Assembly (NCBI GenBank): GCA_038087875.1
Contig: CM075988.1
Span: 22,880,001 to 22,944,000, forward strand
From: Malacoraja senta
Taxonomy: Eukaryota
DNA: 64,000 bases
Direction: 5' to 3'
Position 1 is the first letter of the stretch, and every line of letters begins with the position of its first letter. Below the pieces are notes generated by a model that worked only from the letters and a program-made list of their open reading frames with translations, was not told the DNA's origin and searched no databases. The position numbers were made by a program, and so were the translations under genes. Positions 803-60,712 of this stretch are shown piece after piece.

Positions 803-1931
803 GTTGGTACTAGCATTTTAGTAACTTCTCATATGCAACCAATACTAAACAAAAAAACTGTTTTGGATGCCTATACATTTGAATTTAATCCAAACCGAAT
901 GTACTTATCCCTACACATAGGGTTGGTGGCTTTTGTTTATGTGAAATGTGATAAGACTCAAACATATTCAATGATTCAGTGAGACAGGAAAGGTGATTTT
1001 ATTCCTCATTGTTTTTGGATCAGATGTAGCTAATATGAGGAGGTTTAATGCAATCCGCACTGGACTTAAATTTAGTTTTGGATTTGTATGATATTTTAGG
1101 AAATGCATTTTCAACAACAAACTTGTAATTCCCCATGCAGATGTGAAAATCATACAGCAGTCAAGACTGGGAGAGGCAAGAAGAAGAAAGGGAAAATATG
1201 TTGTGTAGGTTGGGAAGTATACTTTACTGGGCATGTAGGCAAACTGGATGTGTCCAAAGAGGAAAAAGCTTCAGTGAATTAGCAGAGCCATGCAGAAGTG
1301 GGATAGGAACAGTGGAAGGAGTTGTTTATCCTTGAAAATTCTTAGGATTTGTGAAGTTTGAACAGAGGAGAAATAACTACTTTTTGAACTGCAATTTTAT
1401 AATTCGACAGCTTAATGTAGTTTTGCTAAAAAACGTACAGCCTTCGTCTTTAAAAAAAAATAGTGTTACAGTGCCCCCTGTGGTCTAGTACAGAAAGCAT
1501 GACTTGGTGTAGCATGGAGTACTTATGCAAGAAGGTTCCAGTTACAGGATCAGATCAATATGCTCTGCCAGCATGATGGAGAGTTTATACCTGGGGTCAG
1601 TGATCTGGTGCTACACAGAAGGAAAAGTGTATATGTTTCCTGTCTTTAATTGCAATTAAGTGATCCTTTCAAGCAAATCTCTACATGAGAGCAATATAGG
1701 AACATGATCAAGCACAGCTATTATTCCATGTACTCCCACCCTCTCCTCAAAAAAGTGGACAGACAAGTTGCAGATACTCACCCTTTGACTCTAGCATCTA
1801 AAATATCAGCTGAAGCTACCACCATTGTGTATGAACAAAATTAAAATACTAAATTCCCTGCTTTGAAGAAAAAGTGGTGAAGCATATAAAGAATAATAAA
1901 ATTAAAGTTCTGATTTTTTTCCCTAATGTAG

Positions 1932-2088
1932 AACTGAAGTTCCAGAAGATCTGCAGAAATGCCACCTGCCTGGTTTTCCACGTACTGTGCCTCAGGCTCC
2001 TTTCCTGCAAGTTGTTCCAAATGTTAATTTAATGCAGAACATGCTTCCCATGCAGAATTTACAGCCAGCCACACAGCTGGAGTACAAG
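1932..2088 (+). CDS. SIK3: SIK3 coding exon (TEVPEDLQKCHLPGFP...MQNLQPATQLEYK)
   Basis: AG/GT flanks, phase 2 to 0 compatible with neighbours; matches SIK3 QAPFLQVxPNVN...LEYK. Confidence 0.95.
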
Positions 2089-2884
2089 GTATGGATGCCT
2101 TTGCTTAAAGTTTATTAATAGATAATGAATAAGATTTAACTGAAACACCCTGTTGTTCCCAAGCTAAATATCAGTAATATCCTGTAATTGAACGTGCAAA
2201 CCAATTGTCACTGTTAGTGTGGACATCTGTAACCAGAATTCTCAGTCAGGAGATTTCCATGTAATTATAAATTTAATTAGTGCAAATCTGTCACGGTGCT
2301 TCTGCACCGATCCATACATCAACATTGCCTTTCCGAGGATTTCAGCCGTACTGCAAAATATAAATAGCGCAATTTAAAATCTCCATTCCTTAAATTATTA
2401 TAAGATGAAAGTAGTTGAATTGTGGAAATTGTATCTAAGCATGTGTACATTAGAGGAATAAACATGACTTGCTCTTTGACACTCTCTTGGGATTGAGGTG
2501 ACTTACTTCCACCTCTGTTTTGTGGGTTCTGAGATAACTAATGAGGCCATAATGGGAACCATAACCTCCTCCTTGGGAGGAGCAGTTGACGGCTGATGGG
2601 TCTTGTGAGGGGATCTGTTTTTTTTTTGTCTGGAGAGGTTCGGCTTTCTTTGCTGTGAGGGGGTTTGTTTTATTTGCCCTGAGAGGTCTGTTTTCATTGC
2701 CTCAACTGTTCCTTCTTCCCTTTGAGTGGTCATGAGCCAGCAATTCCCAGAGTCAATGGTTATGTTGCATTTCTTGAAGGAAGCTTTAAGCACATCCTTG
2801 AATCATTTCCTCTGACCACGTGATAATCTTTACCCACACACTTGCCAACTCAGGCACAGAAACCCTTGTCCATTCCCTCCTCTT

Positions 2885-3390
2885 GCATAGAAAATAGGTG
2901 CAGGAGTATGCCCTTCGAGCCAGCATCCGGCTTTGTCCCCATATCCCTTGATTCCCTTGGCCCTAAGAGCTAAATCTAACTCTCTCTTGAGAAAACATCT
3001 GGTGAATTGGCCTCCACTTTCTTCCGTGGCAGAGAATTCCACAGATTGACAACTCTCTGGGTGAAAACGTTTTTCCTCATCTCAGTCCTAAATGGCTTAC
3101 CCCTTATTCTTAAACTGTGACCCCTGGTTCTGGACTCCCCCAACATCGGGAACATTTTTCCTGCATCTGTCCTGTCCAATCCTCTAAGAATTTTGTATGT
3201 TTCTATAAGACCCCTTCTCATCCTAAATTCCAGCAAATACAAGCCCAGTCGACTCATTCTTTCATCACATGTCAGTCCCGCCATCCCAGGAATTAACCTG
3301 ATGAACCTATGCTGCACTCCCTCAATAATAATAATGTCCTTCCTCAAATTAGGCGACCAAAATTGCACTCAATGCTCCAGGTGCGGTCTC
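2885..3390 (-). mobile_element. CR1-clade LINE 3' fragment (older copy)
   Basis: ORF QFWSPNLRKD...TRGHSLRI...FTQRVVNLWNSLP. Confidence 0.9.
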
Positions 3391-12341: not shown

Positions 12342-12446
12342 AGGGCCTGTCCCACTTAGGCGACTTTTCAGCGGACTGCCTGCGACCTTCAAGCTCGCGG
12401 CACTTGCCTGAAAAACCGCGAACTGGAACGGCGACCGTCAGAGCGG

Positions 12447-12493
<47 letters not shown>

Positions 12494-14382
12494 CGCAAAG
12501 GCGGGGGCCAGGGAAAGCGGAGGAGCGCTGTCTGAAATTCACACAGTGCAAAGCCAAGGTGATACAGATGTAACTAGTAGAGTGGATAGGGATGTAACTA
12601 GTAGAGTGGATAGGGGAGAACCAGTGGATGTGTTGTATCTGGACTTTCAGAAGGCTTTCGACAAGGTACCACATAAGAGATTAGGATACAAACTTAAATC
12701 ACACGGTATTGGGGGTTCAGTATTGATGTGGATAGAGAACTGGCTGGCAAACAGGAAGCAAAGAATAGGAGTAAACGGGTCCTTTTCACAATGGCAGGCA
12801 GTGACTAGTGGGGTACCGCAAGGCTCAGTGCTGGGACCCCAGCTATTTACAATTTATATTAATGATCTGGACGAGGGAATTGAAAGCAACATCTCCAAGT
12901 TTGCGGATGACACTAAGCTGGGGGGCAGTGTTAGCTGTGAGGAGGATGCTAGGAGACTGCAAGGTGACTTGGATAGGCTGGGTGAGTGGGCAAATGTTTG
13001 GCAGATGCAGTATAATGTGGATAAATGTGAGGTTATCCACTTTGGTAGCAAAAACGGGAAGGCAGACTATTATCTAAATGGTGGCCGATTAGGAAATGGG
13101 GAGATGCAGCGAGACCTAGGTGTCATGGTACACCAGTCATTGAAAGTAGGCATGCAGGTGCAGCAGGCAGTGAAGAAAGCGAATGGTATGTTGGCCTTCA
13201 TAGCAAGAGGATTTGAGTATAGGAGCAGCGAGGTTCTACTGCAGTTGTACAGGGTCTTGGTGAGACCACACCTGGAGTATTGCGTACAGTTTTGGTCTCC
13301 AAATCTGAGGAAGGACATTATAGCCATAGAGGGAGTGCAGAGAAGGTTCACCAGACTGATTCCTGGGATGTCAGGACTTTCATATGAAGAAAGACTGGAT
13401 AGACTTGGCTTATACTCGCTAGAATTTAGGAGATTGAGAGGGGATCTTATAGAAACGTACAAGATTCTTATGGGGTTGGACAGGCTAGATGCAGGAAGAT
13501 TGTTCCCGATGTTGGGGAAGTCCAGGACAAGGGGTCACAGCTTAAGGATAAGGGGGAAATCCTTTAGGACCGAGATGAGAAAAAACTTTTTCACACAGAG
13601 AGTGGTGAATCTCTGGAACTCTCTGCCACAGAGGGTAGTTGAGGCCAGTTCATTGGCTATATTTAAGAAGGAATTAGATGTGGCCCTTGTGGCTAAAGGG
13701 ATCAGGGGGTATGGAGAGAAGGCAGGTACGGGATACTGAGTTGGATGATCAGCCATGATCGTATTGAATGGCGGTGCAGGCTCGAAGGGCCGAATGGCCT
13801 ACTCCTGCACCTATTTTCTATGTATCTATGTATACACCGCGATGAACAGGAAGGTTAAAGATGGCTAGCACAGTGTACGTTAAGCGGGGGAGGTGGGAGT
13901 GGGAGAAGGGGGGGGGGGGGGGAAGAAGGCGTGGAGACAATTTTAAGAAGCCAGACAACTTTTAATAAGCCAGTGTGAAGTTTAGCGGGCATTTAACATT
14001 ACCGGTCGGTTTTCCTTGGTTCTGAAAACTTGTGCTTATGTTTTTTTCCCCAAATGAGCCAGTGAAAATGCCCGGTCAGCAAAGGAGATTAACTAAACTA
14101 CCTACGGCTACCTCGACTACCTACAACGTCATGGCAAACAAAAGTTTCAATTTTCTCCATGGCGACCAATTGTTGGTCGCAGAAATTTTTTCGACATGTT
14201 GAAAAATTTGCTGCGACCATACTGAGGCCGTGACTAGTTCCCAGAATGCGGGAACTCCTCTCGACCATGAAGGAGAGCCACCAGAGACCACCAGCAAACA
14301 TGTGGTGATCATGAGGCGATCATGAGGCGAGCGCAGAGTTTCCTGCACTCGCCTAAAAAGTCGCCTAAGTGGGACAAGCCCT
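12342..14382. mobile_element. Non-autonomous PIF/Harbinger-like TIR element, interrupted by a CR1
   Basis: TIR agggcctgtcccactt...aagtgggacaagccct; flanks ttc and tta; same TIR as 20014-20224 and 48080-48385. Confidence 0.8.
12567..13833 (+). mobile_element. Young 5'-truncated CR1 LINE (reverse transcriptase C-terminal part, intact frame)
   Basis: YLDFQKAFDKVPH, GVPQGSVLGP, KFADDTKL motifs; 3'UTR and short ctatgt-type tail. Confidence 0.97.
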
Positions 14383-20519: not shown

Positions 20520-23516
20520 TCTATCTATCTATCTATATTATATTAAAACTCTGTGGCTGCCTGACTTGTGTCTGCCATCCGCCTGACTTGTGTCACAAAT
20601 CCCCTTTGATACCGCCCTAGGCCCACACAGCACGCGGAAACGCCGATATTTTTTACCATTTCTAAAGAGATTACATTTATCTTTACGAATAGACACTCCT
20701 GATTAAATTTGGTCGTGTTTGTGTACACTTTTTTAAATAAAATACTTCTCCCCCCCCCCACCCCCAAAATTTCAAATTGTAAAAAAAACCAGCTCTCAGC
20801 CATAGAATGTTAGTGAAGGTTCCGTCGTGTGATGTCACAATGCCCGATCCTCACACATGTCCAATCGGAATGGATCCATTTACATATGCCTTTGCAGCAG
20901 CCCCAGCCCCAGCCCCTCCCCCCCACCCCCGCAGCCTGTGTTGAAGCGCGTCATCACGTGTGTGGGAATAGAGAAAGATGATTGGGGGTGATAGGGAATG
21001 GGGAACAGATGGACTGACCCTACCCCTCCCTCTTCCACTCTCCCTCCACACTATTTCCCCTCTCTCCCCCTCCCTCCACAATTTTCCCTCTCCCTCGCCT
21101 ACACCATCTCCCTCCTCTCCTCCCTCCCCCATCCCTCCCCCCTCCCCCACACCTCTCCCCCCTGTACCATCTCTCTCTACCCTCCCCCACCCCCCTCTTC
21201 TCTCCCTCTCCTCACCCTCTCCCTCTCCTCCCCCTCCTCCCCCTCCTCCCACCCCCATCACTCTCTCCCCCACCCCCCTCCACTCTCCCCCACCCCCCTC
21301 CATTCTCCCCCCTTCCCTCCCCAACCCCCTTCCCTCTCTCCCCACCCCCCTTCCCTCCCCCACCCCCTTCCACCTCCCCACTCTTCCCCCTCCATCCACA
21401 CTCTTCCCCCTCTACCCCCTATCCCATCTCGCCTCCCTCCCCCCTCCCCCACACCTCTCTCCACCTCCCTCCTCCCCCTCTCCTCGCCTCCCCACCCCTC
21501 TCTCCTCCCCCTCTCCATCTCCCTCACCTCACCCCTCTCCCGCTCATCCTCCCTCCCCAATCCCTCTCTCTCCCCCTCCCCTCTCTCCCCCCACCCCTTC
21601 CCCTACCCCGCTGTCCCTCTTCCACCACTCCCCCTACCCATCTCCCCTCCCTCTCTCCCACTTCCACCTCTCCCCAACCCCTCCCCATCTCCCTCCCCCA
21701 CCCCTCTCACCCCCACCCTTCCCTCTCCCTCCCCTCTCTTCCCCCTCTCTCCCCCCTACCCCCCTACCCTTCTCCCCCTCCCTCAACACTCTTCCCCATC
21801 TCCCTCCCCCACCCCTCTCCCCCCTCCCTTCCCTCTCCCTCCACACTCTGCCCCCTCCCTCCCCTACCCCCTCCCCTACCCCGTCCCCTACCCCCACCCC
21901 ATCCCTCTCTCCCCCACCCCCTTCCCTCTCCCCCCACCCCCTACCCCATCTCCCTCCTCTACTCCCTCACACCTCGCTCCCCCTCCCCCATCCCTCTCTC
22001 CTCTCCTCCCCTCCCCCACCCCTCTTCTCCATCTCCCTCTCCCTCTCCTTCTCCTCCCACCCCCATCCTTCTCTCCCCCACCCCTCCCACCCCATCCCTC
22101 TCTCCCCCACCCCCTTCTCCCTCCCCACTCTTCCCCCTCCCTCCACACTCTTCCCCCTCTCTCCCCTACCCCATCTCCCTCCTCCCCTCCCTCCCCCCTC
22201 TTCACCCCCATCTCCCCCCATCCCTTTCCCCTCTCTCTTGCACCACTCCCTGCTACCCCTCTCCCCCTCACTCCCCACTCTTCCCCTCTCCCTCCCCCAC
22301 CTCTATCCCTCCCCCTCCATCTCCCTCTCTCTTCCACCTACTCCTCTCTCCCCTTCCCCTCATCCCCTCTCTCCACCTCTAACATCCCCTCCCCCCCTCT
22401 CCCACCCCCCTACCCATCTCCCCCCTTCCTGCCCTCGCCGCTCTCCTCCCACTCCCCACTCTCCTCCCCCTCCCTCTCCCCACCCTGCTCTCCTCTCCCT
22501 CCCAATCTCTCCCCTTTCCTCCTCCCCCTCTCCCCTCCCTCCCCCTCTCCCCTCCCACCCCTCTTCCCTCCCCACCCCGTCTCCCTCTCCCTTCCACTCT
22601 TCTCTCCCCACCCCGTCTCCCTCTCCCCCCCTCCCCCCGCCTGTGTGTTTGGGGGTGGTTAGTGTGAGTGTGATGCCGCAGCCCCCCCCCTCCCCCAACG
22701 CGCGTTGGGGAAACAGCCCGCCAACAGTCTCTCTGTCTTTAAAAAGGAACTGCAGATGCTGGGAAATCGAAGGTACACAAAATAAGCTGGAGTAACTCAG
22801 CAGGTGCAGCAGCAGCTATGTATCGAAGAAAATAGGAAACGTTTCGGGCATAAACCCGTCTGAAGATGGATTTCGGCACAAAGCGTTGCCTATATCCTTC
22901 GCTCTATAGATGCTGCTGCACCCGCTGAGTTTCTCCAGCTTTTTTTTGTGTACCAGTCTCTCTGTCTCTCCCCTCTCTCTCTCTCTCTGCCCTTCTCTCT
23001 TCACAGCCCGCGGCTCAACTCATGCACGCCCGCTCCAACCCCCCCCTTCACCTCTCTCCCCCATCCTCTCCTTCCTCTCTCCCCCTCCTCTCTCCCCCTC
23101 CTCTCTCCCCCTCCTCTCTCCCCCTCCTCTCTCCCCCTCCTCTCTCCCCCTTCCTCTCCCCTCTTCCTCTCCCCTCTTCCTCTCCCCTCTTCCTCTCCAC
23201 CCTCCTCCTCCCCCTCAATTTTTTTTTTATAACATCAAATTTTCTCTCTCGGCCCCCCACCTTCTAGACGCACCTGAGAGGTGAGGGCTATTCGTCAGTG
23301 GATAGGGTGGAGATGGGATAAAAGAAGCCAATTAATAAAATTAAGATAATATCAAGGGGTGTGATGAGTGTGTGTGTTTGTGGGTGCCAGATTCCCACCC
23401 CGCAACCGTGCTTTGGAAAAACAGACCCAACAGGTGGTTAGTGTGACGCCGCAGCCCCCCCCCCCCCACAAACGCGCGTTGGGGAAACAGACCCAACGGG
23501 TCTGCACTTGGTCTAG
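20520..23516 (+). mobile_element. Non-autonomous Helitron-like element carrying a C-rich tract
   Basis: Starts A|TC (tctatctatctatctatattatattaaaac), ends with hairpin cagaccc-aac-gggtctg (23488-23504) and CTAG|T; splits an older CR1 remnant. Confidence 0.7.
20990..22640. repeat. Polypyrimidine (C/T-rich) low-complexity tract
   Basis: Almost no G on the + strand; internal imperfect duplications, e.g. ~21360-21420 versus ~22108-22166. Confidence 0.95.
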
Positions 23517-29481: not shown

Positions 29482-31212
29482 GTAAGAGTATATTTGAATG
29501 TTTGCCAAGTTTTAATCCTCTAGCTGGTTTGAATTTAAAATTAGTAAGGAATGTATGAACCCTCCATAGTTATACAGGCAGATTCTGCTGGCAGCAGTGT
29601 CCTGTCAGTAGCAGTTAGAACTATCTCTGTATCACAGATTTAATATGATCAGTTTAATATTTTTAATTAACCTTTTATTTTCACTTTTGATTTTATTCTT
29701 AATTCACATTTTAATATGATTAATATTTGTCCTCAAATGGAAATCACCACATGACATGTGAAAGTTGATGTTTAAAAATTGTTTTCATTATTAATTCCCC
29801 ACTGAGATTTACAAATCAAATTATATTTAGCTTGAAATTAAGATAAATAATGGATGGCATAATGCTTCTGGGTATTTGAAAACAAGTGCACAGAAGAAGA
29901 AAAATCTGTCAACAATTTTGTGCCATGTGGTTTAACTTGCTTATGATTTTCATGATTTGTAAATGAGAACAAAATAAACCTTTAGCCTTAAAAAATCAGA
30001 GAAGAAACTGCTTCAAAAGCAACAAATTTATACAACACCAGTAAAATGGTATAACATCCCAAGTGTCTGAACAAGCTTGTACAAGCTTTATATTTCAAGA
30101 CGGGTAATCATAGAGATCGGTTTTAAGAATTACTCAACAGGAGGAAAGTAATGTTGGATTGGGTTATTCCAGCTACTTTGGGCCTTGACAGCTGAAGGAA
30201 TGGACATGAGAGCCAGAGTGATTAATATTAAGAGGCCAGAACTGTAGCGGGGAATTGCACAGATAGTGACAGGTAAGGCCTTGGAAGGTTGGTTTAGTTT
30301 AGTAGGTTGCTAAAATTCTTAAACCCAACCCCAAACTGTTTAAAACTCTCTTCTTTCTGATACAACAGGATATAACACACAACTATTTTATCCCAAGAGG
30401 TGGCATGACCTTTTAATTGTTTTGGTGAAATTGGGAGCCACGCCTTTAATTTCCTTGGCTTCCTAGCAGTTAAAGGGAGGAGCTTTGGAAATAATGTAAT
30501 TTGCTTTACTATACCACTGTGCCTGGAAAAGTTCAGTACTTCCTCATATCCTCCCAAGCTATCTCCTAATATTGGATCAGAATCTGAATTGGCAAACAGA
30601 TTCCCTCCCTCCTACCGTGTTGGTGATGAATTGCTTCCATCGCTGCTTTTACAACTGCTCCCCAAATATACCCTACCACCAACATGCAACTTTTACTGTA
30701 ACAGCTGCCAGTTCCTTTCCTGGAGTGCTGCCCAACAAATTGTTCACCAAGCCTGCTAATCAGATTGACTTCCATAGAAATGATCAAATTCCATAGAAAA
30801 GGTCAAATTTGTCCATGTAAGGTTAAAATTGCATGAAATGCAGGGAAACCCGACCTGAATTTCCCAAGCAAATCAATCTCCTTTCCCCTACTTACCAAAG
30901 CTCTGACGCTATTGGGGTTAACAGGTGTGATCACATCATTAAAGTACGTTATTCGTCTGTCTTTGAGCCTTTTCAAATGTCTGACAAGTATGAAAGTTCA
31001 CTGATTATATTCAGAGCAAGAACACAGCTCATGGTTTCAAATTCCACCTGGCCAGATCTGGAGCTGAACTCTATAAATATGATAACTTTTGTGTCCAGAT
31101 CGTGATTTAAAAACCCAATGCTCAATGTCCTCCCTGGATTGGCTTAAAATGTGACTGTTTATTTGATTCATAATGGTCAACATTTTTAACACTGATTTCT
31201 GTTTGTTTACAG

Positions 31213-32118
31213 TCGACCTATTAGTCGATTTTCTCCTTTGAGCTACGACCAGACGCATTTGCACCCTCACCTTTTCCCGGAGCAGTTCCGATTTTTAACT
31301 AACAACTTCAACCCTGCAACAGCAATGTTTTCCCAAGGCATGAAAATTGCACAGATGGACTCGCTTTCAAACTATAACCAGAACATAGCTGGCAAGGCCG
31401 TCATGCAGCATGAACATCAGCAACAGGATTTCACAGCTTCATCACTACATCAGGCATTGCTTTCTCCAACGCCATCTGACTACACAAGACACCAGCACGT
31501 TTCACAGCAGTATGGCCATATGATTCAGGGACTGCTATCACCCAGGCACTCTTTGACAGGCCAACAGGACCTGCGCTTACCTCCTGCTGAAATGTCACAT
31601 TTTTTAAAACGTCACCAGCGGCAGCAACAACAACAACAGCATGAATATGATTTTCTGAGGCACATGAACCAAGGGGTGGGGGATGCTGGAAATATGACTG
31701 CCAACTTATGTGGGCAGCAGCAGACGTTATCAGAGCAACAAACATTAACTATGCCTTATCAGAATACAGAAACGTTTCATCAGCATTGCTTACCACAGGT
31801 CAGAGGCCAAGATCATATTCCGCAACCCCCATCCCAAGGCCACAGTTTTGTACATCACCCCCCACTGATGCATTCAGAGAGCATGGAGGAGGACTGTGTG
31901 TGTGAGGGGAACAGGGAAGGGTATCAGGACAATACAGACTCAACTGACACGTCCACCAAATGCTGCCAAGAGAATACAGTGCTGCTCAATGCCATTAGGT
32001 GTGGCGCCTGCAGAGACACTACTAGCAAATGTGAATCATGTGCACAAAATGGGTGTTTCACAGCCTTATAGTCATCAGGCAGTCCCTGGCTTTGCCGGAA
32101 ACAAAGAACCAAGCAGAG
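31213..32118 (+). CDS. SIK3: SIK3 large coding exon (RFSPLSYDQTHLHPHLF...LLSPRHSLTG...MHSESMEEDC...NKEPSR) with an apparent +1 frameshift near 31995
   Basis: AG 31211-31212 and GT 32119-32120; SIK3 similarity switches from ORF 31238-32071 to ORF 31896-32129; the 906-nt length is one base too long for the flanking phases. Confidence 0.9.
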
Positions 32119-40915: not shown

Positions 40916-42078
40916 ACAATTGTTATTATTTCGTTAGATTATCATCAACATTGTTTTTTTGAGTTTATAATCACATTACACATATATCATAATACATTTA
41001 TGTTATTTCTCATACAAGTACACTGGGCCAAAATATGTTACTTGTTCTTGGCCTGTTTAATTGTGTTTTGGCAATGGGATACACATTTGATAGTAAATGA
41101 TAAAAGTCTGTCCACACATTAAAGCATTTGACACTGTGTCTGAGATGTTAGTGGTCCAATTTGCAATATGTTATGTCCATTTATATTAATCCACAATATT
41201 AGATTAAAAATTTGAAACGTATCCAAACCACAAATGCTTGCGATAGCTTGAGCGTTTTGTTGTCATGACATTTTTTAAAATCAGTATGTATTTAAAGTTC
41301 CTGGACCAAGGAAGAGCTTGACGTAGAATACCTTAGAACACTGAAGTCTGAAACACTTACGCAATCTCTTGTAACCTGTTTCCTTTCCCCTCCATTTTAG
41401 CTCCTTCATTATTCTGTGAAGTTTCAAGCTGGTCTAATTTATTATGCCATTGTCAGATTAGACTGTGCAGATTTAAAATACAATGTGTAAGTATCTGCGT
41501 ACAAGGAAGAGTCCAGTAAATGTAACAAATATAGTCATCCATATTCCATTAAATATCCCGAACTCTGTTATGGGTTTCAAGTTATTAACCCTGCTATTTT
41601 ATTCTAGTCTATGTTGGGGTTTCCGTATTCTCTGTGTGATTGCACGGTTTCCTTCAGGTGCTTCGGTTTCCTCCCACACCTCAAGGACGTGTAGATTTGT
41701 GGGTTAATTGGCCACTACAAATCATGGGTGAATTAAGGAGGAAAGTTGATGAGAATGTGGGGAGAAGAACAATTGGAGTAAGTATAAATGGGTTCCTGCT
41801 GGTCAGCAAAGACTTGGTGGCAGAACGGCCTGCTTGCATGCAGTAAGCTTCCAAGACTTAAAAAAAACTTCAACCATGAACCCGAATTTTTGTGTGGATG
41901 TATAATAATGTTGAATTGGATTTAAACAACAGTTATTAGAATGAATGATATCAATTGTGAGACATGCAATTGTTTTCCATGTTTAAGACTTAAATATAAT
42001 TGGTCAAGTTTAACAGTGCCCACTTCCATATTATTAGATTATTTGTCCAGCATTTAGCACTGTACAGACAGAAATGTT

Positions 42079-42428
42079 CTTCTTCTTCTGTCGTGTGTCT
42101 TTTAGACCTGCAGCTCCGTTGAGGCGAGCCAGGCCAACGTGTCATCGTCCAGGTCAATCAGACCTCGTTCGCCATTCGGTGGCCGGTGTTTGGGGCAACT
42201 GGTGACTATGGGGAGACAAAGACAGCCCTTTACGCGGCCTCCTCTACGATTAGCTTACAGGCTCATAAGCCCACAAAGCGAACCAATGTCTTTACCACGT
42301 CTGCAGACCGCTAAAAGCTATGCCTCCCCAGGCCAGGCGGCACCGTTAAATGCTGCCAACTGTCGAGGTTTAGCGCTACTGCAGCTCAATGTTGAAGGCC
42401 TTACCACCGCCAAGCTCAACGTCATCGA
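42079..42428 (-). mobile_element. Ingi/Vingi-type non-LTR insertion with an inverted 5' segment
   Basis: Minus strand 42079-42210: ORF end IVTSCPKHRPPNGERGLIDLDDDTLAWL...* plus (gaa)n tail. Plus strand 42210-42428: 5'UTR and APE start LQLNVEGLT. TSD acagacagaaa(a)tgtt. Confidence 0.8.
42210..42293 (+). ncRNA. HDV-like ribozyme fold at the Vingi 5' end
   Basis: P1 GGGGAG/CUCCUC, P2 AAAGACA/UGUCUUU, P3 GCC/GGC, L3 CUUUACGC, P4 containing GCUUA/UAAGC, J4/2 CCAA. Confidence 0.7.
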
Positions 42429-45400
42429 ACAGACAGAAAATGTTGAGAAGACCAAAACCATTGTTTGAGATCTTTTCAGAAACACTGTTCCCTTACTTTT
42501 ATCTTTAGCCTTAAGCTTCGACCAAAGTGTCAGTCACTGAGATGACCCATGTTGGACTCTGTGAAATCTCTTAGCTACAACATTACCTCAAGTCATCTGC
42601 TGTTGAAACCATCTGCCATGGCACTGTAACCTTGATTATTCTGATGCATTTCTGGCGGCTCATCTCATCTGCCCTATATTTTAAGGTGTATTATCGGGAA
42701 ACAGAAATATAGTCATGGATGAGTCCAGTATTGCATCGAACTTGCTTCATAATGTCCATAAATGCTTTGATCAGAGAAACATTTTTCACATAGTCTGAAG
42801 AAGGGTCTCAACCCAAAACGTCACCTATTCCTTCGCTCCAGAGATGGTGCCTCACCCGCTGAGTAGTGAGTTTCTCACATTTTTGTCTACCTTCACTTAT
42901 AGTACTGCCTTCCAAATTCATCCACCAAATTCCATTGATATCTTTGGTAAAGTTAGCATTGATTTGAATTCTTGAAAAATACTTTGACCAGTGCCATCAA
43001 ATTAAAAATGCATAAAGTATATTTAAATTTAAGAAACATATGGAGGCATTGTATGAAGGCAAATCTTTCTCATTTTTCTTTGTTTTGTGATGCTAAAGGT
43101 AGTAGGAGGAACAAATTATAATTATTTTAATGGCAATAGAAATGAAAGTAGAAAGCATAACAAATAACTGACTACTTTTTAAATTGGGTTTCGAATAATC
43201 TCGGCGAAAACCACATTTATTGACCTTTCTTTACTTGAAAAGTTAAGGTGATATGCTATCCTGAATGAGTGCTAACTATAGTTCCTAAATCACTTAAGAC
43301 ATTGAAAGTTTTAGAATGAGCAAATGACAAAGGCCTGAACAAGTAGTGATTGCATCCCTTCAAGATGCCGGTGAGTTAGTCAGCTTTTAAGTTTCCAGCT
43401 CATAGACATATTGAATCCATTCATAAAATTTGTAAATGGTGAAATTGATCTGCAAAGATGTTTGGGTTGTGAGTTCTATATTAGAGGCATACCCTTGTTA
43501 ATACTTGGCTATAGATCAAATAGTCCTGTGTATTGTCATATCTCGTGCCTTCTGATATTCCCTCCAGCCAACTGCCTTTCTGTTGCAAAACCCAGCTGCA
43601 GAATCTTTGCTCTGGGTTCTACTGGTCTCATTCCCGTGAGATTACTATCCTTGTTTACCCATATAAAAATGGACCTCTCTCTGGTCAATCTTTTACTCGT
43701 TATTAACTTGACTGAGACTGGGGGAACAGGCAGGAAGGAATGGACAAGCAAAGTTTCAGGTGATTGGAGTAGGGAAGAGAATATTGGAACTTCTCTCCCC
43801 TACTTTCTCCCCTCTTTCTCTAGCTTTCTCTCCCTACTCTAGTTAGTCTGCAACAGTGTACTTTGATGAAAATATGACTCTATGAACCCAAGGTTCTAGA
43901 CTTTTGACATGGCCTGTCCATTCCCTCCACGGATGGCTGCCTGACCAGATTAGTTTCCTCCAGCACTTTGTATTTTTTGCTACAAGATTCCAGCATCTGC
44001 CATTTCTTGTGTCTTCTCAACTGAGAACATTCCTGAAATGGAAGTGTGGTCAGATCTATTTGGAAAATGACATTATAGGTATTGCCACTCAACATTGATG
44101 GTTTCCCAAACTAAAACAGAACTGCACTGCAGAGTATTTGTGATCTTGTAACAGATTATGTAAAAATCTTTGTACACAATCTTGAATGTTTTTCATGCAT
44201 TTTGATATGGATTAGATAATTGTGTGTAAGTGATTTTTCATTTTACATGTCAATTGTGCGGGCTTGCATGAATCATGTTCATGATCCTCTATGCAGCCAC
44301 TTGTACTATAGATATATGCTGTGCTTGGTCACGGGTGGTGCGAGTTGTAGTTTTAGGATTTCTTCAAATAGGAAAACTCCTTTGCATGAGGCAAGGCTGT
44401 TAAGGATAGAAAATGCTTGCTCCCCACAAAGTGTGCTGTTAATGAGAGTTTGTGGCTAAATTCGTGAATGTGGAGAAGGTGTTTCCTAACAAAATGCCCA
44501 ATGTCAAGTCATGAGTTTTTGATCTGGTCATAGATATCTGGTGGCTGTATGTCCTAATCCAATTTTCTATGATCACGGGTATTTGAAAATAAAAGCTGGC
44601 TTTCAATAACAAAAATGGTGAATTATTTAAATAAACTGGAACAAAAAGACTGAAGGTGATTTATAGAAAACTGTGTTTCAAATGTTCAAAGATGACCAGA
44701 CTTTATTAGATCCTTTAAAGGTAGTTCTATACAATTGACAAGGTTGAAAATTACTGCGGTATCTAATCTTGTCCTGTACAGATTGATAATTATTCTTAAA
44801 CTGCTGATTCAACATGTTGGTTATTAACTGAGACAAGTAGCAGACTGATTGCAGTGTTATAATAATGCCAAATATAAGTGCCAGTAAAATAAAAGTAGGT
44901 AATACGAACGCAGTGAACTTGGTGCACCGTTCTCTTTCCTCAGCTCAGGAAGCTAATTGCACTCTGCAGCAACTTTCGATACTGATTTTGCAACATAAAA
45001 CCTGATGCTCATGCAGAGTGGATAATAAGGTACAATGAAACATGGTGATGCATAAGGCCAGCAGTAACACAATACACTCTGCTATCACTGTTTCAGAAAC
45101 GGGTGGCTGTATCCGCTACTATAGACTGTATACAGTCCAATGTTAATTTCCGGAGTTTTTTTGCATTTGTTTAAATGTCTATCGTTGGGAATTGCCTTGG
45201 AGTCATTATTTGATCATTAATGGAAGGGTTTTGGAGTTTAAGGATGTGATAATTTGTTTGCCTTTATTTAAGGTTAATGCTTCAGTCCCTGAATTTCCTT
45301 GGGGCTTCTACTGCACATGCCACAAATCAACAGACCAGTCGAAACCTTACTGAATGGACGAGGTCTCCTTGCAGGAGTGTTCTATTTGTCTTGAAATATG

Positions 45401-51730: not shown

Positions 51731-52763
51731 ATAGATACATAGATACATAGAAAATAGTTGCAGGAGTAGGCCATTCGGCCCTTCGAGCCTGCACCGCCAT
51801 TCAATATGATCATGGCTGATCATCCAACTCAGTATCCCGTACCTGCCTTCTCTCCATACCCCCTGATCCCTTTAGCCACAAGGGCCACATCTAACTCCCT
51901 CTTAAATATAGCCAATGAACTGGCCTCAACTACCCTCTGTGGCAGAGAGTTCCAGAGATTCACCACTCTCTGTGTGAAAACGTTTTTCCTCATCTCGGTC
52001 TTAAAGGATTTCCCCCTTATCCTTAAGCTGTGACCCCTTGTCCTGGACTTCCCCAACATCGGGAACAATCTTCCTGCATCTAGCCTGTCCAACCCCATAA
52101 GAATTTTGTACGTTTCTATAAGATCCCCTCTCAATCTCCTAAATTCTAGCGAGTATAAGCCAAGTCTATCCAGTCTTTCTTCATATGAAAGTCCTGACAT
52201 CCCAGGAATCCGTCTGGTGAACCTTCTCTGCACTCCCTCTATGGCTATAATGTCCTTCCTCAGATTTGGAGACCAAAACTGTACGCAATACTCCAGGTGT
52301 GGTCTCACCAAGACCCTGTACAACTGCAGTAGAACCTTCCTGCTCCTATACTCAAATCCTCTTGCTATGAAGGCCAACATACCATTCGCTTTCTTCACTG
52401 CCTGCTGCACCTGCATGCCTACTTTCAATGACTGGTGTACCATGACACCCAGGTCTCGCTGCATCTCCCCATTTCCTAATCGGCCACCATTTAGATAATA
52501 GTCTGCCTTCCCGTTTTTGCCACCAAAGTGGATAACCTCACATTTATCCACATTATACTGCATCTGCCAAACATTTGCCCACTCACCCAGCCTATCCAAG
52601 TCACCTTGCAGACTCCTAGCATCCTCCTCACAGCTAACACTGCCCCCCAGCTTAGTGTCATCCGCAAACTTGGAGATGTTGCTTTCAATTCCCTCGTCCA
52701 GATCATTAATATAAATTGTAAATAGCTGGGGTCCCAGCACTGAGCCTTGCGGTACCCCACTAG
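51731..52763 (-). mobile_element. Young 5'-truncated CR1 LINE inserted into a SINE tail
   Basis: SGVPQGSVLGP...KAGTGY* intact; the SINE resumes at ~52764 (tttccatgctgtatct). Confidence 0.96.
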
Positions 52764-53217
52764 TTTCCATGCTGTATCTTTCAATCAATTCAATACAAAA
52801 TCCAATTTGAAAATTTATGATGAAAGGGAAGGAAAAGGATCCTATCCTATACAGCATTTACCATTCAATCAACCTCATTGCCCTTGCAGTTTGTGCAATA
52901 TGTAAATCGACTCCCTTGTTCCCAGCATTACAACAGCAGCTACACTTGAAAGCTTCTCTATGATCTGTAAAGCACTCTGGAACACATGGATGTTGCCAAT
53001 CTTTGGATGGTCTTCCAAAAATATTTTATAAATGCTCAAAACATCAGACATCTGGTGAAAATAGGATAAAAGAGTATATTTGAAAAAATAAAAATATTAA
53101 ATCTAAATCTAAATTAGTTATATAAATATACATTAAATATAAATAAAAATAAAATATTACTGTGACCTTGTTTAGTATTTACCAGTGCACCCTTTTATGT
53201 CATTTTCTTTTGTACAG

Positions 53218-53368: not shown

Positions 53369-54341
53369 GTAAGTGCTGATATTCCATCAAATCATTTGGT
53401 TATTTTATAAAATAGCAATGAAGATAAAAAAAGTAGAGGTTATTCTACTGAAGATAGACACAAAGTGCTGTTGTAACTCAGCGGGTCAGGCAACATCGCT
53501 GGTGACATTTCAGGTCGGGACCAGAAGAAGAGTCCCAACCCGAAATGTCACCCATCCTTTTTCTCCAGAGGTGCTGCCTGACCCGCTGTTTTACTCCAGC
53601 ACTTTGGGTCTATCTTCGGTATAATCCAACATCTGCAGTTCCTTTCTACACAGAGGTTATTCTACTGTTATGTGAGATCCTACCAGATCAGTGACCTACA
53701 TGTCCTGTCTTTTTCTCAACCTTGGAGATCAAAGATCTAAAATTGATTATTGACTGAGCGATTGCTGTTTTCTATATTACCATTGCCCTCTGTTCATGGA
53801 AATATTTCCCAACTTAATTTGTTCTGTAATTTATAGACTTTGCACTTTGCCCGAGAATCTCCAATCAGCATGTCATCTTGTTGGTTCTCTTTACTCTGAA
53901 ACCTGTTTAGTTTAGTTTAGAGATACAGCGTGGAAATAGGCCCTTCGGCCTACCGAGTCCGTGCCGACCAACGATCCTCGTACACTAACACCATCCTACA
54001 CACCAGTGAGAATTTACTATTTAACCAAGCCAATTAGCCTACAAACCTGTACGTCTTACATGAAGTATTTTTTATTAATGTACAGTATAGTACTGCAATG
54101 GAATTGACTCTTTGGCCCACAATGTCCGTACCAAACATGAGGCCTGGTTAAATTAATTTAATCTGCCTGAACATGATTCATATCCCTCAATATCCATGTG
54201 CCTATCCAAAAGCCTCTTAAAAAGCACTATTGTATCTACTTCTGCCACTATCCGAGGTAGCGCATTCCATGCACCTAGCAATCTCTGTGTAAAAAAAACA
54301 TTCTCCGCATATCTAACTGTTAATCTTTGTTTCCTATGTAG

Positions 54342-54876
54342 CCTCAGGATTTCAGAGAACTTGGAGAACCTCGGTGTCTATGTTGCGGAGCTGCAGAAGA
54401 TGGTAACTCCTCTATCGGAGGATATTCATGAGAGATTCCAGACAGACAGCGCAAAGCTCGAGGAGAATTTTCGGGAGGGCTTGAAAGAGTTCAGAGCCAA
54501 AGTCCTTCAGTACACTGAAGGTCTCCACCACAAAGTCAACCATAACGTTGAAGAGTACTGTATCATGCTAGGTCCTCTAGCTGACGATCTTAAGGAGAAT
54601 GCCAAGGGATTCCAGCAAAAGTTGACCCCGTTAGCTGAAGGGCTCCAGGAGAAGATGAGGACCAACATTGAAGACTTTAACAAGAATGTAAGCCCATATG
54701 CTGAATCAGTTCATGAGATGGTCAACCAGCAACTGGAAACCTTGCAACAGAATACTTCTCCTTACACCAGGAAATTCAAAGAACTGTTCTATGAATGCTT
54801 TCAACATTTGAGAGTGAGATTCACCCATTTAAACCCAGACATGCAGGAGTGTCTCACTCACAAGTTGAAAACTTAG
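54342..54876 (+). CDS. APOA1: Apolipoprotein A-I/A-IV-family last exon with Pro-punctuated amphipathic helical repeats; possibly truncated or decaying
   Basis: tag acceptor in phase 2 (N|LRISEN); repeats such as TPLSEDIHERFQTDSAKL, TPLAEGLQEKMRTNIEDF, SPYAESVHEMVNQQLETL; same strand as and adjacent to SIK3, as for mammalian APOA1; AATAAA at 55311. A-I versus A-IV assignment is not certain. Confidence 0.8.
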
Positions 54877-59640: not shown

Positions 59641-60063
59641 CTGAATGTGATAAGTTTGCAGATCCTGAAGCTAATGTTGAAGATACTGGGAAGGCACAGT
59701 GGCAAAGCGACTGCCTTACAGTGCCCGACACCCTGGTTCAGGTGACTATGGGTGCTGTCTGTACGGAGTTTGTACGTTCTCCCTGTGACCGTGTGGGTTT
59801 TTTCCGGGTGTTCCGGTTTCCAAAGACGTGCGAGGTTGTATGTTAATTGGCTTCGGTAAATTGTCGCTAGTGTGGAGGATAGAACTAGTGTTTGGGTGAT
59901 TGTTGGTCAGCACGGACTCCGTGGGCCGAAAGGTCTGTTTTGCACATGCCGACTAAGATGTCCCATCTACACTAGTCCCACCTGCCTGCCTTTGTCCCAT
60001 ATCCCTCGAAACCTTTCCTATCCATGTGCCTGTCTAAATGTTGTTAAAGTACCTGCTTCAACT

Positions 60064-60712
60064 TTGGCCTTCATAGCAAGAGGATTTGAGTATAGGAGCA
60101 GGGAGGTTCTACTGCAGTTGTACAGGGTCTTGGTGAGACCACACCTGGAGTATTGCGTACAGTTTTGGTCTCCAAATCTGAGGAAGGACATTATAGCCAT
60201 AGAGGGAGTGCAGAGAAGGTTCACCAGACTGATTCCTGGGATGTCAGGACTTTCATATGAAGAAAGACTGGATAGACTTGGCTTATACTCGCTAGAATTT
60301 AGGAGATTGAGAGGGGATCTTATAGAAACGTACAAAATTCTTATGGGGTTGGACAGGCTAGATGCAGGAAGATTGTTCCCGATGTTGGGGAAGTCCAGGA
60401 CAAGGGGTCACAGCTTAAGGATAAGGGGGAAATCCTTTAAGACCGAGATGAGGAAAAACTTTTTCACACAGAGAGTGGTGAATCTCTGGAACTCTCTGCC
60501 ACAGAGGGTAGTTGAGGCCAGTTCATTGGCTATATTTAAGAGGGAGTTAGATGTGGCACTTGTGGCTAAAGGGATCAGAGGGTATGGAGAGAAGGCAGGT
60601 ACGGGATACTGAGTTGGATGATCAGCCATGATCATATTGAATGGCGGTGCAGGCTCGAAGGGCCAAATGGCCTACTCCTGCACCTATTTTCTATGTTTCT
60701 ATGTTTCTATGT
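60064..60712 (+). mobile_element. Young 5'-truncated CR1 LINE inserted in an older CR1 remnant
   Basis: LAFIARGFEYRS...KAGTGY*; (ttctatgt)n tail; aact on both sides. Confidence 0.95.

Follow-up and report, generated by a model that had tools for sequence, protein, structure and literature searches.

The DNA analysed here (the window) is a 64,000-nucleotide (nt) stretch of Malacoraja senta contig CM075988.1 (positions 22,880,001 to 22,944,000, forward strand). At 42064..42444 it carries a dead insertion of a long interspersed nuclear element (LINE), apparently of the Vingi type, whose 5' part, or head, lies flipped beside its truncated 3' part, and this insertion is one of dozens of its kind in the genome. 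Across 45 independent inverted events, most heads end within a narrow stretch close to the 5' end of the element, and the 3' pieces start at widely scattered positions. These findings point to twin priming on one full-length RNA, with the second nick priming at a constant place some 185-240 nt away from the 5' end, which we consider the probable explanation.

Architecture of the window insertion

A single target-site duplication flanks two pieces of the element: the last 130 nt, which lie on the minus strand, and the first 225 nt, which lie on the plus strand and span 42210-42433. The two copies of the duplication, ACAGACAGAAA(A)TGTT at 42064-42078 and 42429-42444, match at 15 of 16 nt, a single A being inserted or lost. 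The parts are listed below, with element positions numbered on a 3158-nt ruler; helices and joining segments are those of a predicted ribozyme fold of the hepatitis delta virus (HDV) type, and ORF stands for open reading frame.

42064..42078, plus strand: left copy of the target-site duplication, from the sequence; end of the first-strand primer, whose final TT can pair with the tail
42079..42089, minus strand: (AGA)n tail of the element, from the sequence; the full-length copy L091 has the same tail
42090..42104, minus strand: stop codon (42104-42102) and 12-nt 3' untranslated region (UTR), from the sequence
42105..42210, minus strand: 3' piece, 99% identical to the ruler and running from element nt 3029 on, with the last 35 codons (42209-42105) of the single ORF; G42210 is common to this piece and the head
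42210..42293, plus strand: predicted HDV-like ribozyme fold lacking G1, from the descriptor, parsing and covariation in L201, L260, L252 and L269
Plus strand: P1, 42210-42215 with 42239-42245; P2, 42218-42224 with 42287-42293, from the ribozyme parse of the window copy
Plus strand: P3, 42225-42227 with 42236-42238; L3, 42228-42235; P4, 42253-42279, from the same parse
Plus strand: J4/2 CCAA, 42283-42286, with the predicted catalytic C at 42283 (nt 75 of intact copies), from the ribozyme parse
42286..42433, plus strand: ORF start and first apurinic/apyrimidinic (AP) endonuclease codons, element nt 78-225, from Pfam PF03372/PF14529 on a full-length copy
42336..42357, plus strand: hairpin of 7 bp, upstream of where the endonuclease codons begin, a candidate protein-binding element
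42429..42433, plus strand: ACAGA, common to element nt 221-225 and the right duplication copy, the second-primer microhomology
42429..42444, plus strand: right copy of the target-site duplication, with one extra A, from the sequence

The initial annotation had read this locus as a twin-primed Vingi insertion, with a minus-strand 3' end and a plus-strand 5' end enclosed by one duplication. The enclosing duplication is plainly seen in the sequence, and the two opposite pieces with their 5-nt ACAGA microhomology support twin priming. The inversion point had been put exactly at the 5' G of the ribozyme, which needs correction. The head of the window copy begins at element nt 2, and G42210 is common to both pieces, so that the inner junction lies at nt 2-3 and G1 is missing; its position would be 42209, a T of the 3' piece. 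Between the head end and the start of the 3' piece, 2,803 nt of the element are absent. The ATG at 42286 overlaps J4/2 and P2', as had been claimed, and the frame opens MSLPRL...LQLNVEG, with LQLNVEG from 42379. No second copy of the family was found in the window besides the 42064..42444 locus.

The natural full-length copy L091 is 3090 nt long and holds AP endonuclease (APE) and reverse transcriptase (RT; RVT_1) pieces split by stops and frameshifts, and in its close relatives both domains are encoded by a single ORF of about 1000 aa. No domain of the RNase H family was detected in the three ORF pieces of L091 or in any of four full-length relatives (E<=0.1). An AP endonuclease followed by a reverse transcriptase in a single ORF of about 3 kb is the architecture given for Vingi, and absence of RNase H separates Vingi from Ingi (PMC13708176). 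The element thus appears, by its architecture, to be a Vingi-type LINE. A PDB search gave matches limited to the RTs of R2, L1 and group II introns.

A common end point for inverted heads

The 1.94-Gb genome was searched for patterns with 5' probes, giving 33 and 75 loci; 76 loci, and then 36 more, were mapped. Duplicate rows (L099, L121, L122, L138, L170, L175, L197, L198) were dropped, and an amplified group (L012, L014, L021, L145-L151, L153, L156-L160, L162, L190-L196) was counted once, as L142. This left 56 de-duplicated loci, 39 of them inverted; adding L188, L189, L166, L174, L180 and L140, and excluding the extra event of L136, gave the 45 events.

The inverted pieces end before nt 183 in 2 events, at nt 183-242 in 33, at nt 243-410 in 4 and beyond nt 1000 in 6, and 26 of the 45 ends fall within nt 218-242. 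When the 39 ends at or below nt 410 were redrawn uniformly, a crude null, none of 100,000 draws put 33 of them in a 60-nt window. The 3' pieces start anywhere in nt 1007-3082, with 34 distinct starts among 35 head-type events (in L140 the 3' piece is the tail alone), and head end and 3' start were not significantly correlated (rho -0.28, p 0.11). The missing segment measures 809-2,975 nt in 37 of the 39 inverted events of the 56-locus set; it is shorter than 30 nt in 3 of the 45. The initial annotation had treated the window copy as a one-off, a view that the 45 independent events and their shared priming hotspot do not sustain.

A duplication of 7-14 nt is present in 42 of the 45 events, and microhomology of at least 2 nt at the head end was found in 25 of these 42, compared with about 16% expected by chance (p 1e-10). 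We considered the possibility that full-length copies had been rearranged after insertion, by deletion plus inversion, or that the first cDNA had snapped back, as seen in products of R2 (PMC11371274). Yet the duplication abuts the 3' end of the head with primer-like microhomology in 38 of the 42 events, and the same geometry recurs at dozens of independent loci. After snap-back, moreover, the non-inverted cDNA should still be long, but in these events it is the piece that is truncated. Either event is therefore very improbable as the general explanation.

Another possibility, favoured in the initial annotation, is that a non-autonomous element with an internal deletion supplied the RNA for ordinary twin priming. 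Internally deleted derivatives of Vingi families are on record (PMC5786205), one of the 56 loci (L130) is a direct bipartite copy, with a different junction, and one contig of run X9 contains a direct head-to-tail joint. No direct copy of the 225-to-3029 junction was found, however; the inversion point would need to coincide exactly with the deletion junction, and the 34 different 3' starts among 35 events would require 34 deleted masters. We therefore give this explanation hardly any weight.

The hotspot might also arise without any site held by protein, from accessibility or base bias, that is, a purine- or A-rich single strand, together with a bias introduced by sampling with 5' probes. Indeed, 13 of the 45 ends fall near an A5 run, at nt 230-242, and short heads get to the 5' end more easily than long ones. 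However, the predicted unpaired probability is 0.25-0.65 at nt 176-245 and 0.75-0.83 at nt 266-285, where just 1 end is found; the A4 runs at 105, 277, 704, 1416 and 1463 are hardly used, and merely 2 of 45 ends precede nt 183. As to sampling, 25 loci fetched with nt 245 or nt 1023 probes comprised 3 independent long inversions that miss the 5' end, 1 duplicate of L124 and otherwise plain truncations. These data make accessibility or base bias an improbable cause of the hotspot.

The abundance of inverted copies was assessed with a probe for nt 45-62. The 38 chromosome-scale loci that it retrieved were 25 inverted, 8 direct long, 3 head-only, 1 bipartite and 1 complex, so that inverted copies outnumber long direct ones by about 3 to 1 among loci bearing the 5' end. 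The 25 inverted copies start at nt 1 (9), nt 2-3 (8), nt 5-10 (7) or nt 16 (1). Two head-only copies, L102 (L102:1580-1817, nt 1-233 plus A9) and L114 (L114:3996-4184, nt 1-189; both coordinates head-oriented), have duplications of 13-14 nt and no 3' part, and their ends coincide with the head-end hotspot of the inverted copies. L132 and L154 may be similar, though without clear duplications. A 3'-anchored sample of 29 loci (24 fully in view) contained 3 inverted pieces, all of them heads. Candidate loci with the 3' end number at least 1,256 in the genome.

Exact 17-mers numbered 140 at nt 131, 27 at nt 245, 45 at nt 1023 and 136 at nt 2001. On contigs C1-C22 the count drops past the hotspot, from 33 at nt 131 to 20 at nt 245, with 34 at nt 1023; most nt 131 matches outside these contigs probably belong to the amplified L142 group. 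Contig depth in sequencing runs X10, X5 and X8 falls several-fold past about nt 240, and less so in X9, with loose ends at nt 201-242 and nt 2-5; as contig depth cannot rank parts of the element, this drop is a hint only.

Some further observations concern individual copies. The L142/L012 group goes back to a single inverted insertion, with a head of nt 9-226 and a 3' piece that starts at nt 2801, present on many unplaced contigs, with a 13-nt duplication inside a sequence resembling a short interspersed element (SINE); it probably amounts to about 100 copies, and the same flank occurs in run X5. L107 has a doubled 5' end, and in L104, L098 and L253 the last bases are re-copied at the 3' end of the head, which suggests repeated priming. 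The complex locus L136 contains a further inverted event (nt 4-227 plus 2790-end) and, 300 nt off, a separate piece of nt 37-98. By eye, the hotspot resembles the 3' tail, in the motifs CGA(A)CAGA and CTCAA(C/T)G.

The ribozyme-like fold and the RNA's 5' end

Intact copies start GG(A/G)GGAG with a 7-bp P1. They parse as P1 at nt 1-7/30-36, P2 at 10-16/79-85, P3 at 17-19/27-29, a 7-nt L3, P4, and J4/2 CCAA at 75-78, with full pairing in P1 (7/7), P2 (7/7) and P3 (3/3); the first ORF ATG is nt 78-80. The window ribozyme shows three private changes, namely an extra C at P3/L3, a G>T change in J1/4 and the loss of one A before J4/2.

The initial annotation had proposed an HDV-order fold at 42210. 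A strict custom descriptor of this order gave a single match on the two strands of the window, at that position, and none in 118 control segments; it matched just 1 of 22 upstream regions of distant loci. A relaxed descriptor yielded more matches plus chance ones, and the heads used below were confirmed by position and parsing. Because P2' fell out of register when 11 ribozyme heads were aligned with MAFFT, pairs were counted by segment-anchored parsing instead, which succeeded for 13 of 15 heads (L272 and L277 failed). The parsing register was set by custom scoring, and covariation is reported as simple pair counts. Compared with L093, both sides had changed in 6 (L201), 9 (L260) and 7 (L269) of the 17 P1-P3 pairs, and none of the pairs was broken in these heads; one pair was broken in L252 and one in L208. 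The compensatory changes in L201, L260 and L269 agree with the expectation that the pairings are conserved across copies. J4/2 begins with C in 13 of 13 parsed heads and reads CNAA in 12. In copies from the window genome, position 3 varies between A (23) and G (10), and nt 36, the last base of P1' and the partner of G1, between T (19) and C (17); either variant keeps its pair. By eye, only one U-A pair is possible in P1.1 (L3 U-Y-U-A-C-G-C, J1/4 starting AC), and nt 2-74 of Vingi-2_Gav (PMC5786205, supplement) appear to have the same P1-P2-P3-L3 layout.

An Rfam scan of window positions 41900-42600, which hold the mutated window copy, gave no HDV-like family among its 5 matches (E<=10), and the pseudoknot-free minimum-energy fold of the locus was no better than that of shuffled sequences (z -0.34). 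We propose that the head of this family has an HDV-like ribozyme fold, as indicated by the compensatory changes in distant relatives, and cleavage is predicted. There also appears to be a subfamily with a shortened P4: L111 lacks 11 nt while keeping a GCTT/AAGC stem, and L113 and L120 appear to share the short P4.

Nine direct copies, 7 of them long and 2 head-only, lie within a duplication that can be recognised, and in all nine no letters separate duplication and element; 8 of them start at G1 and 1 at nt 2-4. A convincing duplication was sought in 4 further direct copies and not found. The family therefore starts at the G-run, as the initial annotation had implied. As all nine abut the duplication, there is no upstream leader, nor an extra G such as a copied cap can leave at a 5' end (PMC2912911). 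The inserts at the inner junction vary between copies, which argues that no shared upstream sequence was copied.

The second cDNA had been said to run to the end of the RNA, and in the window it did so almost to the end, G1 itself being absent from the head. It had also been suggested that the junction is a fossil of cleavage in vivo. Yet this 5' end is found in full-length copies as well, and would likewise result from an internal promoter with its start at +1; in L1Tc, a 5' self-cleaving ribozyme and an internal promoter exist together (PMC3185411). A 5' end at G1 fits self-cleavage and a +1 promoter equally well and is therefore no proof of cleavage in vivo. The inverted copy is an independent readout of the RNA's end, one that does not decide between self-cleavage and a +1 promoter.

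Proposed priming of the second cDNA and its parallels

In the mechanism that we favour, the family 5' end, G1 of an HDV-order fold with covarying helices, would be produced by self-cleavage of the RNA, with a +1 promoter as the other possible source. A staggered cut accounts for the duplication of 7-14 nt (15/16 nt in the window), and one 3' end of the cut would prime on the (AGA)n tail, its extension halting after 130 nt in the window copy. The other end of the cut shares 1-5 nt with the RNA at the head end (5 nt in the window), where the second cDNA would be primed. Most heads reach nt 1-3, consistent with run-off at the end of the RNA. The two cDNAs would then be end-joined, either losing 0-2 nt or leaving microhomology or short inserts at the joint. 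As the protein-bound 5' motif of R2 suggests by analogy, a protein of the element may hold the ribozyme/hairpin region next to the second nick, and the held region would fix the priming site regardless of the length of the first cDNA. The hairpin is a candidate for the protein-binding element.

Several observations weigh against a fixed site on a single full-length RNA. The 5'-end probes favour heads that reach the 5' end, and ordinary inversions in the 3' half are undersampled, 136 loci of the nt 2001 probe lying outside the fetched sample. The 6 long inversions have head or piece ends at 1095-2117 and gaps of 0 to about 1,190 nt. Linkage between head and tail alleles is weak, the best nominal p values being 0.002-0.012 among 208 pairs tested; a Mantel r of 0.13 was reached by 359 of 5000 permutations, and co-active subfamilies would also give head-tail linkage. 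In L102, L110, L119, L127, L161 and L188 the A-run at the head end exceeds the A5-A6 of the template, which fits short adenylated head RNAs or slippage. Among distant relatives, the inverted head L234 ends near nt 90, outside the hotspot, and the hairpin is not evident in L201 or in the L208/L269 group. One raw RNA run gave 0 reads on the head, a result uninformative on expression or cleavage.

Some of these points bear on a two-template explanation. Here the first nick would copy a normal RNA of the element, and the second would prime on a short head RNA of its own (nt 1 to about 185-242). Such head RNAs could arise by early termination or 3' trimming, their 5' end being protected by the ribozyme fold. 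The head-only copies L102 and L114, with their clean duplications, speak for this possibility, as do the lengthened A-runs at several head ends. There is also a precedent, in which an inverted, 3'-truncated U5 is joined to a 5'-truncated L1, with the truncations in one loop (PMC4476161). Yet 13 ends at nt 221-227 and 5 at 185-190 are non-A sites with target microhomology, which suggests internal annealing rather than a ready-made 3' end. In inverted copies, head allele 36C goes with tail alleles 2795C (6/6) and 3144T (8/9), as in the full-length copy L109, and this linkage, weak as it is, leans to one source. Furthermore, one-RNA twin priming does occur in the family, as seen from long inversions whose gaps measure 0, about 10 and 28 nt. 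Two templates are the main competitor to twin priming on one full-length RNA, though an unlikely one.

A bolder proposal may be made, which we advance as possible rather than probable: Vingi-type RTs would have a built-in second initiation site, the protein gripping the ribozyme-capped head and beginning synthesis some 200 nt in, with the second nick as primer. Head-only inserts and flipped heads would then be products of a regular, conserved pathway yielding most copies that bear the 5' end.

Distant relatives bear on such conservation. A first metagenome scan with the N-terminal piece and a scan of viral contigs found no relative. The metagenome loci examined were 80 kept of 544, and four of them (L253 and L273, which represent one insertion, L277 and L234) have an inverted head beside a truncated 3' piece. 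The inverted head of L253/L273 starts at G1 and extends over about 200 nt as far as the LQLN codons, with its last stretch repeated, and that of L277 ends at the LTKAK codons; in codon terms, these ends match the two clusters of the window genome. A hairpin about 20 nt before the LQLN codons is found in the window family and in the L235/L252/L260/L274 group. As a separate observation, many relatives (P0011, P0012, P0017, P0035, P0040 and others) have an S-G-R motif shortly before the first endonuclease motif. In their N-terminal leaders it corresponds to the DNA word TCAGGGCG of distant heads, which may reflect an RNA or promoter element. P0014 contains AKPMS, the translation of the J4/2-P2' region of the window element.

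The inverted copies resemble the 5'-inverted insertions of human L1, in which two opposite cDNAs lie within one duplication of the 10-20 nt class, with microhomology at the second primer and short microhomology or inserts at the inner junction (PMC2912911, PMC4245944, PMC12016303). In L1, the cDNA ends lie within 20 bp of each other in 46% of cases (132/287), and breakpoints are spread over the 3' part, with peaks (PMC12016303). In contrast, the gaps of the Vingi-type copies are shorter than 30 nt in 3 of 45 events and mostly measure 0.8-3.0 kb, with a second site that stays close to the 5' end. The cell assays of PMC4245944 saw 5' inversion almost exclusively with L1 in human cells. Chimeras of U5 and L1 are similar in that the inverted piece keeps its 5' end, has a recurring 3' cut, is joined to a 5'-truncated LINE and shows primer complementarity (PMC4476161). 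They differ in that a foreign small nuclear RNA is inverted, in few cases, whereas Vingi-type copies invert their own head.

The predicted fold is comparable to that of L1Tc/Ingi elements with the Pr77 promoter, an HDV-order fold of about 80 nt starting from +1 with at most one P1.1 pair (PMC3185411). Unlike in L1Tc, the first ORF ATG is built into J4/2-P2' and the sequence differs, the Vingi-type fold being a prediction. The 5' and 3' protein-binding motifs of R2Bm may share a logic with the proposed mechanism, in which protein bound to a 5' RNA element would sit at the second-strand cut (PMC6895275). R2 differs in having a site-specific, restriction-like endonuclease and a second cut that is thought to follow loss of the 5' RNA (PMC6895275). 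Bipartite Vingi, Ingi and RTE elements are likewise LINEs reduced to their 5' and 3' ends, but they are replicating families in direct orientation (PMC5786205), whereas here the ends are opposed and the junction differs from one event to the next.

Both twin priming and ribozymes of the Ingi type are already known; what appears to be new is a fixed second site that does not depend on the first cDNA and that distant relatives share. No report of inverted Vingi copies or of a fixed 5'-proximal priming site was found in the literature searched, key subscription papers and patents being beyond reach. Completion of the LINE 5' junction and priming at the second nick are described as poorly understood (PMC6895275), and 5' inversion has been regarded as mostly a trait of L1 in human cells (PMC4245944). 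A fixed second site, inferred here from dozens of insertions that arose naturally and with counterparts in distant relatives, would provide a testable 5' RNA-protein contact in an APE-type element. If a built-in initiation site does exist, flipped heads and head-only inserts would expose how APE-type LINEs hold their 5' end while the second strand primes. The clade list with HDV-like ribozymes in PMC5786205 names Ingi and not Vingi, and covariation support for such a ribozyme at Vingi 5' ends is added here. Of practical relevance, Vingi-1 is under development as an RNA-only gene writer, with donors carrying Vingi 5' and 3' UTRs, and a review calls for full junction analysis (PMC13708176). A flipped head plus a truncated tail is a predicted class of by-product, if the donor keeps the responsible 5' region.

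The remainder of the window holds a few features of another kind, and its SINEs look like those of cartilaginous fishes (Chondrichthyes). An open frame at 54157-54876 (plus strand) looks, by eye, like an apolipoprotein A-I/A-IV-type exon, and a 291-aa open frame rich in glutamine and histidine at 31196-32071 (plus strand) is probably a host exon. A C-rich, low-complexity tract of about 2 kb with strong strand skew lies at 21000-23200. Three near-identical young RT 3' fragments, by eye from a CR1/L2-type LINE, are found at 12360-13739, 51829-52857 and 59860-60612.

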